64,000 bases of DNA, from assembly GCF_051903065.1 (NCBI RefSeq), contig NZ_CP178439.1. The stretch is one strand, 5' to 3'. The position numbers are program-made. This document shows, in pieces, positions 45,001 through 54,000 of the stretch (positions are counted from its first letter, which is position 1; the number at the start of each line of letters is the position of its first letter). Source of the stretch: Escherichia coli. Its GTDB lineage: Bacteria > Pseudomonadota > Gammaproteobacteria > Enterobacterales > Enterobacteriaceae.

Positions 45001-48000
45001 GGTACATGACTATAAGTTAATTGACTATCTGAATACTATTCTGATCCCTGACACCAAAAAACCAGCCAGAGGTATTAACATTGTTGCTGAAAAATTTACC
45101 TCTATTAATTACACTATGGCCAAAAACATACCCCTCTTACTTTATCAGTCCATTTTCCGGTGGAACTTAATCCTGGGGTGGCTAATCGTTTTTCTGCCCT
45201 ATCTATTTGCCATGCTAGCAGATGGAATGTACCAGTGGAAATTGAAGAGGTACGTATTTGGTAAGGTTACAGTTCAGTTTTATCGTATTTGGTTTCGAGC
45301 ATTTTGGGTGATCAGTGCTTTAACGATGGTCTACCTGGTCATGCCGAATATGTCACTATTTAACAATATCGCTCAACTTTTCCCACCAGTCGCTTTATTG
45401 ATACTGGGAATTGCATTGAATCGCTTGTGGTCTAACTTTCAAAAACTCATGTAAAGGTGGTCAGATGTTAAGCAGTAAAAAAAGGAAGTCCCCTACAAAT
45501 ATCAAAGAATCGCTCAATGATAACGCTGACCGTTTTTATAAGATGTTTCGCATTCATACCACGGCAAAAGTTGCTATGTCGCTAATTGCCATGACCGCTG
45601 TAGGGTTTTCTTTCTACAATCTTTACGAACAATGGCAGGACGCTGAAGGGAAGAAAGACCATATAGCTGTAATACGGATTTCTGGCGAGATGGGTACCGG
45701 CTCGGAAACGGGCGATGGAACAGTGATCGCAACAGCTCTTGCCAAAGCTTACAATAATCCCCATGCCAAAGCAGTTATTATCGAGGCAGAGTCAGGTGGT
45801 GGTGGTCCCTCTGACGCCATCATTATTTACCGCCAGATAAACGCGCTTAAAAACCACCAGCCACAGATTGAACGCGTATCAGATGCCGGTTGCTCTCTTT
45901 CATCTGTAGCCGCTGACAAGAGTAACAAAACCGGGAGCACAGAACGTGGCGATGAAGCACGGTCGAAGCAAAACTCCCTCGAAGTACTCTCCAGCGGTAC
46001 CGGTCGTTTTTTCTCTGATATCGCAGACTCATATAAACCAATCATCGTTAGTGTGAAAGGCATATGCGCATCCGCATGCTATTACGCGGTATCGCCCGCT
46101 GATGCAATTTATGCCGACAGTAATGCCCTGATCGGTTCTATCGGTGTGCGTATGGACCACTGGAATCTGTCAGAGATCATGAGCACAGTAGGCGTCAAGA
46201 ATGAGCCCCTTACGGCCGGTGAGTTCAAAGATGCTCTTGACCCCTTCCACCCATTGTCCGATTCAACGAGGGAGTTCATGCAGAAGGAGATCCTGAACAC
46301 GATGCATGAAAAATTTATAACTGATGTTGAACTTGGACGGGGTAAAAAGCTTCTCTCGCGTCATGATGCCGATGCTGTTTCTCTCTATTCAGGCCGTGTA
46401 TGGCCAACACCTCAGGCAGTTAAGTACGGCCTGGTGGATGGAGATCTTACGTCAGTAGAGATCCGTACACGTCTTTCAAAAATGTACTCCACTGACACGT
46501 TCAAAAACTACAATGAGCCTCATCGTAATCTCCGTTCTGCACTCGGCATGCTGATGAGCCTGTCTTCAAATATTGAGAGCCTTACCGGTACCACTACCCG
46601 CTTGGTAGAATCTGTTAATGCCACCAGCTACCCCTCTGTGAGGTAACATGGATGCTTTCAATCTGCTGTGGAGCATTACGGGGGTAGCTTTCATTATCCT
46701 TATTTTCGTCGTGTTGCTGTGTCTGTTGGGTTTTATGACCTCTGCCATAGCGGAACGGCGGACTGCAAAGGCAATTGAATCTGGGCTTCCTGAAGAAGCT
46801 CAGGGGCTACTTAGTGATCTCACCTTTCAGTTGTCGGCTCATAGCACTACTCAGGTTGATCACATTCTCGTAGCCCCACATGGTATATACGTCATAGAGC
46901 AGAAAAACTACGTAGGCAAGCTCTACGGTACTCTGGAGGAAAGCCACTGGCGGAAATGGACTCAGTCCCGAACCCTCAAGTTGCAGAACCCGTTTAAGCA
47001 AAACCAGGGGCACATCAGGGCTATTCAGTCTGCTCTTAAGGCTAGAGAACTGGAATGTATCAATGTCGTCATCATAAACGGACGTTGTAAGTTTGATGGC
47101 ATCAAGCCGGAATGGTTATGTATGGGGATGGACGATTTTATCCATAAAGTCAAACAACGACGAGGGCTACGGTTGTTCACACCGGAGTCTGTTCAGCACA
47201 TCTGTTCGGTGTTGAAGTCAACAAGGAAGTCGCCAGGGCTCTATACGGACCTTACTCATATTCACAACATAACGACAAAGTACAAAGCCCCGATGAAATT
47301 CGAGCAACGAGTAACATACATTCTGCTCAACTTTATCCATTATCTGTGGGCAAGTCTGTTCACTAAGCAGAAGCCTTAGCGCTCTATCATTGGTAAGGCT
47401 GTAAAATGTCTGCAAAAGGCCCCATCGGTAAATTGTTGGGGCTTTTTCTTTGCGTAGTTCTGATACGGTTTATCCTGTGGAGCATTATGGCCACCAGCCA
47501 GCTGGTGACTGGCCAACGCTTTGTATGACGTAGCCTACTCAGGGCAGGCTATTTTAGAGGGACCGATTTTTATCCGGGCTAATTTAGAAAGAGATAATTT
47601 GAACTTAGGCGGGCTGACCACCAGCAGAGAGGTAAATCACTAGCCGGTGATATTGACAGAAGTCGTCAGGGGTTTAACGCCGGAATATTTTGCCAGGCCT
47701 CCTGCAAGGTCTGCAAGACTTCTACAAGTGATAGTGACGGCCACAGGACTGTTTCCGTCATTATCACTCCAGGTGGCTCGCACTCTACTGGTACCAGAAT
47801 TAAAACAACACGAGTTCCTTTTACCTGGTAGGCAAGGTTTACTGCCGGTTGGCGGTAGGAGGCCAGTACACCCTCACCATATTGAGCAGGGTTACTTGCC
47901 CAGTTCCGCACCATTGCATACACCTGAGGCATATACCGACTATCCAGATCCCCTTTGGGCCGTCTGAACGGCACGATTTCTTCTGAGCGGTAGGTGGTCG

Positions 48001-51000: not shown

Positions 51001-54000
51001 TTGAAGGAATCCACGTTTCTGTCGTTTCTGTACATGAGATATCTCCTGCCCCTCCGCTATACGAAGGGGCTTGATAGGGTTACTGCCAGGCTGCGATCAC
51101 TTCTTCGCACTGGAAATGAGATAAGCACTGCTGGAGTAGAAGAGCCAGCACCGCTGTGTTAGGGACGCGATTGTTACACCACGCGTTGAAAAGCAGCTGC
51201 CATGGACCGGCATAATACCCGGCCAGTTTCTTTTTTTGTTTAGCTGTACGGCAGCGGGAAATGGCCTGCTGATAAAGGCTTTCATTCTCATCACCAGCCC
51301 GTTTTTGCAGAGTGCGATAAATATACGAATAAAGACTGTCAGAACAGTTTGAAGCGTACGCCAGTTGTTTTTTCATAATACCTCCTGTTTAGAAGTATTA
51401 TATGTAAACAGCCTCAGCGGCTAATAACCCGTAGCAATATAATTTGCATTTTTTCTATTTCTGAAGACGCTTTTTAAATTAATATTTACTGAGTTATCAC
51501 AACTTATTATTCTTCCCGTCTGCTGTTTTATTAATCCCCCAGTTAGTAATCACGCCAAGTCGGCGCAATTTTTCACGTTGTTCATAAATAAAAAAATCGC
51601 CAAGGCAGTCTTTTAAAACTTCACTATCCTGATATTTTATTTTTTGAAGCATCCTCGCAACTATGGCGCGTTTCAGGAATATGGCTGCATCAGACTCAAG
51701 CATTTGTGAGGACTGTCTGACGGTCTCCTGCATGTCGACGATACTGCTGAGCTTTCGTCTGACCACGCTTAGCATAGTGTCCGGGAACCGCTTAGCGGCT
51801 GAATGTAACCCGCAACAACGTTACGCATTGTTTTACTCACTGCAATTTTCCATTTAAGTCTGTTTGTTCCACCAGCTGCTAACATCAGCGTTATTCATCC
51901 TGAGGTTTCGCCCGCGATTGACAGATCAGAGGCAGCATGGATGAAATTGCCAGAGTAGATCACTGCATACGCGAATAGTGGTTTGTATTCAGTTCTGCGT
52001 TTGCCTGCTTTTCCAGTGCTGTCATAACCCGGCGGAGCATCGCCAGAGCCTGAACAGGCGAGCTCCCAAACTGCACTTTCACTTCAGCCGTATCATGATC
52101 CTGAATCAGGTCGAGTATATTCACTTCGATCCCTGCCCCGTTTTCATCTTTTGCCGTGCACTGAATACTTACCCGGGTCACCGAATCCGTCAGGACTGGC
52201 AGTGGGTTAGTTTTGTCTACGTTGATAACAGCCTTCTTCATTGCCCTGTTTCCCCTTGTCCTGAAAAAGTTACCGACCCGTCCGGATGGAGGGGTCGGTC
52301 AGAAAATCATGACTGTCCCTTGTTCATCTTATCAGCATGCTTACGCAGGTACTCTTTCAGGTCAGCATGAGCGTTGATGATATCGTTCATTTCATCATTG
52401 GTCAGAACAAGCGTGTAAGTATCAGTACTGACAGATTCACCTTCTTTAAGCTTGGCTTCTTCAGCAATACGTTCAAAAATCGGGATCGCGGTGTCTGCAA
52501 TGACGGTCACAGTCTTTTTGTTCAGAACGCTGGACATGGAAGGTGCTTTACCTGCCGGGTTCTGTTTAGGAGCGCTGTCCTTTGGAGCTGGAGCCGGTTC
52601 CTGTACCGGTGGCGTATCCAGCGTCTCCGTATTGCTTTCATCGTTCAGTTGATCCGGTACCGGGGTGTTATCGGTAGTATCATCTGCCGGTTGCTCAGCA
52701 CCGATGTTTTCCGGAGTCTGCGGATCTGCCATGCGCTCTTCTACCTTGGCAGCTTTGACGAATTTCAGCGTGTTTTTCGTCGCCTTGCCATAGATGGAGA
52801 TCGCTTTGTTGATGTTATCTACCGCATCCTCACCGCTGTACATATACTCGTCCAGTGCAACGTACATGCTCACCTGATCGCTCACAAGCATGGTCTGTAG
52901 TTCAGAAGGCAGGTCCAGTACGCGAACCATCTGGCGAAGATGCTGCTCTGATTTACCACGTTTTTTTGCCAGTTCCGCAAAGGTCTTAGGCTCTTCTTTA
53001 TCTTCAACCAGACGCTTAATTGAAAGCGCTTCAGCTACGACAGACAGCGCCAGGTTGGAGTTGCCGGTCAGGGTGAAGAGTTCTGCTTTTGAAGCGCTAC
53101 CGCGAAACTCTTCGCAGCGAATACGAGTAATGCGTTCACGCCCTTCTGCTTCCAGCTGGCGGTTTGCAATAGCGATGGAACGGATACGGCAAGCCCCCTG
53201 ACGCAGTACAGGTACGCCATTAACCATCTGAACAACGATAGGCGTCACGCTGAACGGGTCTTCCATGTAGGCATCGGCCAGGCTGTTCAGGTGTTCCACA
53301 ACGTGAGGCATTGAATAGTAGAGCTCGCCCATACCGGCCGTGCGGGTGTTAAAGCCTTCCTGCTCTACAACAACCGAAGGGTCAATGATAAGGCCGTTGC
53401 CTTTACGGGCACCGTTACCAGTGCGTTCCAGGTAACCACGAAGGCTGATTTCGTTGCTGTTGTTTTTTACTTCAGTTTCGATTGCGGACATTTTTGTTCT
53501 CTTTTTTGGTTGGTTGTTTAACTGCGCTACAACACAACAATACCAGGTTCGACATTTTTCCTAATAGGTTGCGGAGAAGAAAAAGTAACTTTTTTTAAAA
53601 ATTTTCCTGAGGCAATACTACTCGATCCGTCCGTTTTAAATCTTCACAACAGTGGGCCGTTTTTACGTTTAAGCAAAATAACTGGTTCAGAAGGTGACTC
53701 AGAGAGAAAAGTTACTTTTCCGGTTGTCTGGGCCAGTGATGGGAGAGTGGCAGGACAGGAATGGCTAAACCGGTGCGGGTCTCTTGTAAGTCGCAGGGGA
53801 TTCAGGAGATATAGAGGTAAACTGGTACGTTCAGTTTTTGGATTGAGCCGGGCTTTTGGCCCGGGCTTAAGGAAGCAGAAATTTGAACGAACTGGCAGGT
53901 AATGCTTTATGCCGCCGACAGCTGGCCGTCAGTGCTTTGCTGTTCTGGTTTGACAGTTGGGGGATAACCGGCAGTTAGCCGCTGGCATTCCGCATCACAG

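Follow-up and report, generated by a model that had tools for sequence, protein, structure and literature searches.

An orphan ParB-like gene and a dispersed operator-like palindrome on the backbone of IncHI plasmids

We examined a 64,000-nucleotide stretch of Escherichia coli DNA (contig NZ_CP178439.1 of assembly GCF_051903065.1; hereafter the window) with regard to an orphan ParB/KorB-fold gene at 52307–53491 on the (−) strand and to a short palindrome that recurs in its promoter and across the plasmid backbone. The window is an IncHI2 backbone: positions 47500–54000 were 100% identical to hundreds of plasmids of approximately 210–300 kb from Escherichia, Salmonella, Enterobacter, and Klebsiella, which are typed as IncHI2A, MOBH, and MPF_F, and its first 23.5 kb is accessory DNA that includes an integron. 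As the reference, we used R478 (274,762 bp), a complete IncHI2 plasmid. On the same strand, the ParB-like gene is followed by nine small open reading frames (ORFs), from 51960–52241 to 47666–48028, where the first-pass annotation had counted at least six. RefSeq labels all ten genes only as "hypothetical protein".

The ParB-like gene encodes a protein of 394 amino acids (RefSeq WP_001272970), referred to here as paralogue A. The protein matched Pfam HTH_ParB (26.6 bits; cut-off, 22.6 bits) and, over residues 24–255, the "ParB-like partition protein" family phrog_1033 (E = 1.6e-21). The TIGR00180 score was under the cut-off of that model, the NCBIfam Noc match was weak (E = 7e-4), and phmmer retrieved Caulobacter ParB structures at E = 1.6e-4. 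An AlphaFold model built on seven orthologues had predicted local distance difference test (pLDDT) values mostly near 90 for residues 12–254, followed by a disordered linker that is acidic and proline-rich (residues 255–321) and two C-terminal helices of low confidence. In a Foldseek search against the PDB, the top match was the RK2 KorB-KorA-DNA complex 8qa9 (E = 3e-8), and ParB bound to cytidine triphosphate (CTP), Noc, and Spo0J came next. The KorB, ParB, and Noc chains aligned over 184–243 columns (E = 3e-8 to 1e-5), which span the N-terminal domain and the helix-turn-helix (HTH) at residues 149–209. The N-terminal ParB/Srx-like domain contains GFNTR in the Box I region, RQGACRIRS as a Box II-like motif, and GN as a Box III-like motif. 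These comparisons establish a ParB/Srx fold with an HTH in the predicted structure of paralogue A.

Among 1.84 billion cluster representatives searched, 710 matched paralogue A at E ≤ 1e-3 and only 20 at E ≤ 1e-30, chiefly orphans of large MOBH plasmids, and no relatives were found in viral contigs. The recognition helix follows the pattern S-x-x-H-[LIV]-R, in which S, H, and R were invariant among the orthologues down to 35% identity. By sequence, paralogue A is a separate clade that is neither a member of the KorB family, because it has no KorB domain, ParA partner, or identified KorA, nor a partition ParB.

The deviant Walker A motif of ParA proteins (K[GS]GxGK[ST]) was not found in any frame of the window, in agreement with the earlier claim of a ParB-type protein without a ParA partner. 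In the whole of R478, the only copy belongs to the ParA of Par1 at 15.5 kb, approximately 73 kb from the ParB-like gene. Par1 is a P1-type ParA/ParB system whose ParB matches PF08775, and ParM with a partner gene is also present on R478. The ParA-contact motif [LIFVM]G[KR]G[LIFVM] was absent from paralogue A; this is a weak test, as the true ParB proteins of the plasmid do not match the expression either. Because the window encodes no ParA, the lone Walker A motif of R478 lies in Par1 ParA, and Par1 ParB is unrelated, we consider the ParB-like protein a true orphan and not the partition ParB of the plasmid.

Two perfect palindromes (AAAAGTNACTTTT) lie upstream of the ATG of paralogue A, as had been claimed from the first inspection. 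The proximal copy (AAAAGTAACTTTT, 53581–53593) is centred 96 bp upstream of the ATG and approximately 57 bp upstream of the inferred transcription start, and the distal copy (AAAAGTTACTTTT, 53707–53719) is centred 223 bp upstream of the ATG. A simple scan for the sigma-70 consensus gave no promoter directly upstream of the gene. An alignment of four upstream regions revealed conservation of both palindromes and of TGGTATTGT, which was the best-conserved promoter-like element, approximately 45 nt before the ATG. On this phylogenetic footprint, the element (53537–53545, (−) strand) would be an extended −10 and the probable promoter of the gene, with a 5′ untranslated region of approximately 39 nt.

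The arrangement of the palindromes is shared among relatives. The distances from the ATG were 96 and 223 bp in IncHI2, 100 and 218 bp in IncHI1, and 104 and 205 bp in a Yersinia plasmid; in the latter two, the proximal copy is kept at the orthologous position. A Leclercia-type plasmid has one copy at 252 bp and another, with one mismatch, at 285 bp; in a Klebsiella IncFIB/HI1B plasmid, five copies lie within an intergenic region of 659 bp. All five lineages of paralogue A (100% to 35% identity) therefore have 1–5 palindromes upstream, and the proximal one is approximately 100 bp from the ATG in three of them. Two palindromes less than 200 bp apart occur at only three places in R478, one of which is the paralogue A promoter. 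The own-promoter copies and the invariant recognition helix suggest an autoregulated reader of the palindrome, of which both features would be expected.

The dispersed palindrome

The palindrome core (AAAGTNACTTT, AAAGTWACTTT) was present in 14 copies in the window against 0.06 expected, and none of 100 shuffled sequences reached 14. In R478, 54 copies were found against 0.6 expected under a first-order Markov model, and the runner-up palindrome of the same 5-N-5 form had 8 copies. With any arm and gap length, this was the only over-represented palindrome family on the plasmid, IS26 copies aside. The central base was A or T in 47 of the 54 copies and the flanking position was A or T in 65%, which gives (A)AAAGTWACTTT(T). 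Apart from the two copies described above and one among the small ORFs, the copies in the window start at 23588, 24489, 26582, 33494, 36113, 36554, 37039, 40462, 41900, 43630, and 62146 (n = 11). The copy at 36554–36566 lies 77 bp upstream of the trhR-like gene.

Approximately half of the copies in R478 (26 of 54) are intergenic (P ~2e-8). This test is conservative because a deliberately generous ORF set was used that left only 15% of the plasmid non-coding. The intergenic copies usually lie 75–300 bp upstream of a start codon, and they precede the tra operons AC, Z, R, and H as well as many non-tra operons; many other sites fall within genes or at their 3′ ends. The palindrome was absent from the accessory transposon and metal-resistance segments, including the resistance regions of R478 at 80–110 kb and 120–140 kb, and from the accessory DNA in the first 23.5 kb of the window.

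The sites were also compared between plasmid groups. At nine orthologous IncHI2/IncHI1 sites in the interval from Tra1 to the ParB-like gene, all 90 arm bases were identical, while the 60-bp flanks on each side were 66% identical, and the central base was free, differing in three of the nine pairs. Four of the nine sites are intragenic (one in trhR, one at the start of trhH, and two in traG), which indicates that intragenic palindromes are also maintained. The same palindrome ranked top in every related element examined, with 14 copies in 41 kb of IncHI1, 22 in 40 kb of Klebsiella IncFIB/HI1B, 5–7 per 21-kb locus in the Leclercia-type plasmid, the Yersinia plasmid, and another IncHI-like plasmid, and 2 in a 4-kb metagenomic contig. 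No copy was present in the 40-kb IncC region examined. A search of 100,044 genomes for two palindromes 20–50 bp apart was uninformative; among the matches listed were unrelated repeats of Bacteroidota, Clostridia, and others. From these sequence comparisons, the palindrome is a genuine plasmid-wide element that is placed like an operator. It was not found in any paper in the IncHI context.

A second, GC-rich palindrome family, CCCCGC-NN-GCGGGG, was observed in the first 40 kb of the Klebsiella IncFIB/HI1B plasmid OW967031 (11–16 copies, depending on the arm length); this family has no relation to the AAAGT palindrome.

The distribution of the sites also bears on whether paralogue A could bind a centromere as part of a partition or DNA-organising system with dispersed parS sites; it would then act together with Par1 ParA, which is encoded far away, or with a factor of the host, and regulate transcription only secondarily. 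Scattered parS sites (12–14) serve true partition in IncC plasmids (PMC10954446). Noc, to which paralogue A is weakly matched in NCBIfam, is an orphan ParB with dispersed palindromes, and conserved intragenic sites would suit such a system. On the other side, paralogue A has neither a ParA partner nor a ParA-contact motif, the plasmid already has P1-type ParA/ParB and ParM/ParR modules, and a derivative without the gene, pSI170-1, is stably found in nature. The intergenic, promoter-proximal bias and the autoregulatory layout fit regulation better than partition. The sites spread over the whole R478 backbone and are not clustered as a centromere beside a par operon. We regard a primary role in partition as very improbable.

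In regard to Par1 itself, the first-pass annotation had held that a canonical ParA and a centromere with a different parS nearby, together with a lack of binding to the palindrome, would speak against its proposal. Elsewhere on the plasmid there is indeed a canonical ParA/ParB system of the P1 type, with 249-bp repeats of its own. Its ParB is unrelated to paralogue A, and Par1 therefore has no bearing on who reads the palindrome. Par1 ParB is an unlikely reader, as it is P1-type, has no BLASTP similarity to paralogue A, and has its own repeats, and as no copy of the palindrome was present at 7.1–18.5 kb of R478. These repeats form two tandem arrays of approximately four copies each (78–87% matches; R478 12516–15095) in an unannotated 3.8-kb gap upstream of Par1 parA, and they probably represent the Par1 centromere or incompatibility region.

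Candidate readers and proposed control of the backbone

We favour, with moderate confidence, the reading that paralogue A is a non-partition orphan of the ParB-CTPase-fold/HTH family that binds the palindrome and modulates backbone transcription, because its ParB fold, the absence of a ParA partner, genuine and conserved sites, and the conserved copies in its own promoter are all in evidence. The binding step taken by itself is, in our judgement, evenly balanced. In this mechanism, a dimer of paralogue A would bind the 13-bp site (A)AAAGTWACTTT(T). The two copies in its own promoter would lead to autoregulation, with repression somewhat preferred there, and the approximately 50 other copies would allow plasmid-wide modulation of backbone transcription, including that of the tra operons AC, Z, R, and H. 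Nucleation at the sites would probably be followed by action at a distance as a nucleoside triphosphate-dependent clamp, in a manner resembling RK2 KorB or IncC ParB, and the effect at distal sites could be either to silence or to oppose silencing by H-NS. We infer paralogue A, rather than one of its paralogues, as the binder, and likewise the nucleotide dependence and the sign of the regulation.

Two paralogues, both matching HTH_ParB, were found by tblastn in the part of R478 outside the window: paralogue B (268858–270021; 32% identical over the N-terminal domain and HTH) and paralogue C (273234–274286; 26% identical). The promoter of B has a one-mismatch copy (AAAAGTACCTTTT) approximately 75 bp upstream, and that of C has a one-mismatch palindrome approximately 310 bp upstream; the B-type genes of two other elements have perfect palindromes 38 and 8 bp upstream. 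In R478, B and a Dam methylase gene are divergently oriented, and C adjoins the replication region.

As there are three paralogues for a single palindrome family, no unique reader can be named. It is unlikely, although a serious competitor, that the palindrome is read by B or C, or by all three competitively, and that paralogue A is a regulated target or an interchangeable reader. The single palindrome family shared by three paralogues is consistent with this, as are the copies 8–75 bp upstream of the start of B-type genes in three independent elements. In addition, R0042 and R0153 of the IncHI1 plasmid R27, which are annotated as orphan "partition proteins" and may correspond to B and C, were induced in all conjugation-promoting conditions. 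Among B-type orthologues, however, the recognition helix is highly variable although the DNA site does not change, which is modest evidence for A over B. Moreover, the R478 promoters of B and C have only one-mismatch copies, whereas that of A has two perfect ones in a denser and conserved two-site architecture. A plasmid with the palindrome but without A was also sought: every IncHI-type record of PLSDB that has a B-type gene has A as well, recent deletion derivatives excepted, and of the one candidate, contig RCWA01000006.1, the analysis covered 21 kb. The proposal that paralogue A is the most likely reader of the palindrome thus retains the orphan fold, the operator-like sites, the own-promoter copies, and the invariant helix in its favour, but the two paralogues deprive it of uniqueness.

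The known regulation of IncHI plasmids provides a second line of comparison. IncHI backbones are known targets of H-NS and Hha (PMC7366339). In an array analysis of R27 at 25°C, mutation of htdA derepressed 139 of the 181 expressed genes, including 106 of the 170 non-tra genes, and left the transposon, tet, cit, mucAB, and parAB genes unaffected (PMC7366339). HtdA was said to control most R27 genes "directly or indirectly", and no cis element was described (PMC7366339). The division between backbone and accessory genes in the HtdA/TrhR-TrhY regulon of R27 matches the distribution of the palindrome. By gene order, with flmA (R0101) and the H operon (R0115–R0122) as anchors, R0104 is probably the R27 orthologue of paralogue A. 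Its array signals were 2196 at 25°C, 2155 at 37°C, and 5624 in the htdA mutant, and the high signals at both temperatures suggest that the regulator is made abundantly and constitutively. The signals of R0105 were 207 and 295, R0106–R0109 were scored as not expressed, and R0113, a homologue of the ORF at 48085–48369, gave 2633.

These data could also be explained if the palindrome is the operator of TrhR/TrhY, counteracted by HtdA, and the ParB-like gene is merely a member of the regulon whose product binds something else or nothing sequence-specific. The palindromes upstream of the AC, Z, R, and H operons and the derepression in the htdA mutant, which spares accessory genes and parAB and so mirrors the site distribution, agree with this possibility, as does the increase of R0104 (2.6-fold) and R0105 (6.5-fold) in that mutant. 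The TrhY-like protein (35164–35676, (−) strand; 170 amino acids) has a C-terminal CxxC-N14-CxxC zinc-ribbon pattern reminiscent of FlhC, SetC, and AcaC, which is a further point in favour of TrhR/TrhY; neither this protein nor its TrhR-like partner of 266 amino acids matched Pfam. Against it, activators of the FlhDC, SetCD, and AcaCD type recognise long composite boxes and are not known to bind a perfect 13-bp palindrome. The R operon was reported to be HtdA-independent despite the site 77 bp upstream, many sites are intragenic or at gene ends, and the analogous dispersed palindromes of IncC are ParB sites that adjoin, and are distinct from, the activator (AcaCD) boxes (PMC10954446). A TrhR/TrhY operator is therefore rather improbable, less so than a partition role and more so than reading by B or C.

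Several results weigh against paralogue A as the reader of the palindrome. No match to Pfam KorB (PF08535, at E ≤ 0.01) or ParB_N was obtained. Box II is RQGACRIRS rather than GERRxRA (family consensus R-Q-G-H-C-R-x-R-A), with two of the three arginines kept, and Box III has G-N for E-N, the glutamate being replaced by glycine; the nucleotide-pocket motifs are thus recognisable but altered, which makes CTP-dependent clamping uncertain. The promoters of the orphans B and C, encoded by the same plasmids, likewise contain the palindrome or a one-mismatch copy. The S-x-x-H-V-R helix is also found in IncC orphan homologues, although the 40-kb IncC region covered here has no copy of the palindrome, which indicates that the helix alone does not specify the site. 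The natural 215-kb IncHI2A plasmid pSI170-1 (NZ_CP050761.1), which is non-mobilizable and has no relaxase, gave only a B match and lacks A; A is therefore not needed for maintenance. Finally, R0104 rose in the htdA mutant while most of the backbone was derepressed, which is a poor fit to a simple dominant repressor. As a side observation, pSI170-1 keeps the Dam methylase gene.

A wider proposal, which we put forward tentatively and consider somewhat doubtful, is that the three orphan ParB-CTPase-fold paralogues jointly read the approximately 50 palindromes as clamps that silence or desilence H-NS-covered operons, and thereby link HtdA/TrhR-TrhY to the derepression of 139 of 181 genes in R27. 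In such a programme, A may be constitutive, and B and C may be induced by conjugation if they correspond to R0042 and R0153; the programme may span IncHI1, IncHI2, IncFIB/HI1B, and environmental relatives.

IncHI plasmids have a major part in carrying multidrug resistance in typhoid Salmonella, and likewise mcr-1, mcr-9, and carbapenemase genes in Enterobacterales. They conjugate in a thermosensitive manner and under tight silencing. One circuit is known to govern most backbone genes of R27, and no cis element or effector has been described for such breadth. A conserved, countable operator with a short list of candidate readers makes this question directly testable. Among the ParB-fold proteins that have been recruited as transcriptional switches, paralogue A stands as a further, distinct clade that has altered nucleotide motifs and lacks a ParA. 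If it reads the palindrome, as is probable, it would be a plasmid-wide controller of gene expression new for this clinically important family. If it proves to be a global silencer, it may also help to set the fitness cost of the plasmid and offer a point of attack against transfer. No description of the palindrome or of a role for the orphan ParB-like proteins was found in the searchable literature, and no paper was found that ties IncHI to KorB-like or ParB-like regulators.

The small downstream genes and their surroundings

The nine small ORFs are all on the (−) strand. The first (51960–52241; 93 amino acids) starts 66 bp downstream of the ParB-like gene and is 58% identical in IncHI1; its family occurs only in IncHI1 and IncHI2. 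It has no recognisable HTH and no family match, and no KorA-like gene was identified. It is followed by ORFs of 92 amino acids (51497–51775), with no homologue in the seven related loci compared; 98 amino acids (51080–51376), 72% identical in IncHI1 and 45% in the Leclercia-type plasmid; 145 amino acids (50598–51035), 53% identical in IncHI1, 39% in the Leclercia-type plasmid, and 29% in the Yersinia plasmid; and 180 amino acids (49994–50536), 61% identical in IncHI1. The 122-amino-acid ORF (49461–49829) was not found in IncHI1 and gave weak PHROG matches to families of unknown function. The 100-amino-acid ORF (48726–49028), which is unannotated in R478, has a hydrophobic N-terminus and a (GGN)13 glycine tract; the approximately 13 GGN glycine codons at 48726–48775 end the ORF, and the opposite strand of this tract encodes a proline run. 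The block is interrupted by Tn10 in R478, in the interval of this ORF.

The last two ORFs are served by a strong sigma-70-like promoter, TTGGCC-N17-TATAAT, with a palindrome (GAAAGTTACTTTT, 48532–48544) approximately 130 bp upstream whose position is kept in IncHI1. The 94-amino-acid ORF (48085–48369), with an N-terminal transmembrane helix, is the probable orthologue of R0113 of R27. The final ORF (47666–48028; 117/120 amino acids) is the most widely conserved, with homologues in the IncHI1, Leclercia-type, Yersinia, and Klebsiella plasmids, and its AlphaFold model has a confident alpha/beta fold for which no structural relative was found.

Six of the nine ORFs are conserved in IncHI1 at 53–73% amino-acid identity, and three of these six also occur in more distant plasmids, which indicates that they are real genes although the set is variable. 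Beyond the weak matches of the 122-amino-acid ORF, no Pfam, NCBIfam, or PHROG family was assignable even at E ≤ 1. The ParB-like gene had been described as heading this block. The ORFs do follow on the same strand, but a single operon is doubtful: the R27 signals of approximately 2200 for R0104 and approximately 200 for R0105, with R0106–R0109 silent, indicate that the small ORFs are probably not in one operon with the regulator, and the last two have their own promoter and palindrome. The small ORFs are separate, variable backbone cargo and not parts of the regulator; their only apparent tie to the ParB-like protein would be the palindrome control shared by the last pair.

The Tra1 relaxase operon directly precedes the locus and encodes mobI (37237–37722), the MobH relaxase, the TraD/TraG coupling protein, a DUF4400 protein, an S49 peptidase, and, as its last member, a NERD nuclease that ends at 47379. 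On the other side of the ParB-like gene, a 76-amino-acid ORF (53907–54137) lies upstream of its promoter on the same strand. Next to this ORF comes the interval 54137–54593; in the 1.1-kb gap to a divergent DUF5417 gene, a near-consensus sigma-70 promoter, TTGACA-N17-CATAGT, was observed at 54501–54529 on the (+) strand, and no copy of the palindrome was present. No Rfam family was detected in the 45–64 kb part of the window.

Such surroundings suggest one more role for the ParB-like protein, that of a HerB/YfjB-like reprogrammer of the recipient chromosome after transfer, with the small ORFs as establishment or anti-defence cargo. The genes nearby include hok, DUF957, DUF3085, and methylases, along with numerous tiny ORFs of the sort common in establishment regions, and HerB of the F plasmid is a precedent for an orphan CTP-binding, ParB-like protein of the leading region (PMC13370423). 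HerB, however, has no strong motif, in contrast to the sharply defined plasmid-borne site found here, and the probable orthologue R0104 is highly expressed in vegetative donors at both temperatures and not only zygotically. Of all the alternatives considered, we give this one the least credence.

In the oriT region between the trhR-like gene and mobI (36803–36970), a 15-bp unit (AAAAGTGACCCTATG) occurs approximately eight times, arranged as inverted pairs, and its first nine bases are identical to the left portion of the dispersed palindrome. A 160-bp segment of this region (36825–36985) had 83–84% identity to unannotated DNA of unrelated E. coli and Citrobacter plasmids of 85–289 kb, and these look-alikes may be oriT mimics.

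Comparison with known ParB-fold systems

KorB of RK2 has an N-terminal domain, an HTH, a long acidic linker, and a C-terminal domain that is SH3-like. Its OB operators are 13-bp sites of 6-N-6 geometry, of which RK2 has 12, approximately one per 5 kb. This IncP-1 protein is a CTP-dependent sliding clamp and global repressor (PMC11790492). Paralogue A resembles KorB in its ParB-fold N-terminal domain and HTH, with 8qa9 as the best structural match, and the IncHI palindrome is likewise 13 bp long with one free central base and occurs approximately once per 5 kb. The sites of both systems are promoter-proximal, distal, and intragenic and lie also in the promoter of the reader gene, which here is the candidate reader. 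Paralogue A differs in having no Pfam KorB domain, no ParA (IncC) in its operon, and no identified locking partner of the KorA or TrbA type. Its Box II and Box III are altered, its C-terminus is predicted with low confidence to be helical, and approximately 54 sites and three paralogues occur per plasmid.

In IncA and IncC plasmids, a KorB-domain ParB represses its own promoter and has 12–14 scattered palindromic parS sites, some beside master-activator boxes (PMC10954446). These are related large MOBH/MPF_F plasmids whose palindromes are also dispersed over the backbone, some of them, in IncC, immediately upstream of promoters that depend on the master activator. Unlike paralogue A, the IncC reader is a true partition ParB with a ParA and a Pfam KorB match of 1.7e-38, and its site, CTTTCACATGTGAAAG, is parS-like and differs from the IncHI palindrome. 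In a 40-kb region of the IncC plasmid p3347089II_1, we observed copies of a palindrome core, TTTCACATGTGAAA (14–16 bp), starting at 290, 3873, 4332, 9647, 12983, 24027, and 27442. Six of the seven extend to CTTTCACATGTGAAAG, one lies approximately 50–60 bp upstream of parA, and they match the published scattered IncC parS sites. The same region also encodes an orphan homologue of paralogue A (19944–20882) with no known target.

HerB (YfjB) of the F plasmid is an orphan CTP-binding, ParB-like leading-region protein that targets the host chromosome, and chromatin immunoprecipitation sequencing gave no strong consensus motif or parS-like inverted repeat for it (PMC13370423). BisD of ICEclc activates the transfer competence of this integrative and conjugative element (ICE) (PMC12409273). 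Neither is associated with a multi-copy, element-wide palindrome. HerB residues are numbered to at least 625 and include a distinct dimerisation domain, a large C-terminal dome termed D4, and HerB is induced zygotically, in contrast to the 394 amino acids and short helical C-terminus of paralogue A. Like HerB and BisD, paralogue A would be an orphan ParB-CTPase-fold protein of a conjugative element repurposed for transcriptional control.

VirB descends from the P1 ParB lineage, whereas paralogue A has no similarity to the P1-type ParB of its plasmid, and the approximately 54 sites described here, which include intragenic ones, contrast with few for VirB. On the Shigella virulence plasmid, VirB is a CTP-dependent anti-silencer (PMC10770331). 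Both are orphan ParB-family proteins on large, H-NS-silenced, thermoregulated enterobacterial plasmids. VirB binds inverted repeats upstream of its target promoters and acts at a distance, with which the position of the IncHI sites, approximately 75–300 bp upstream of start codons, is compatible.

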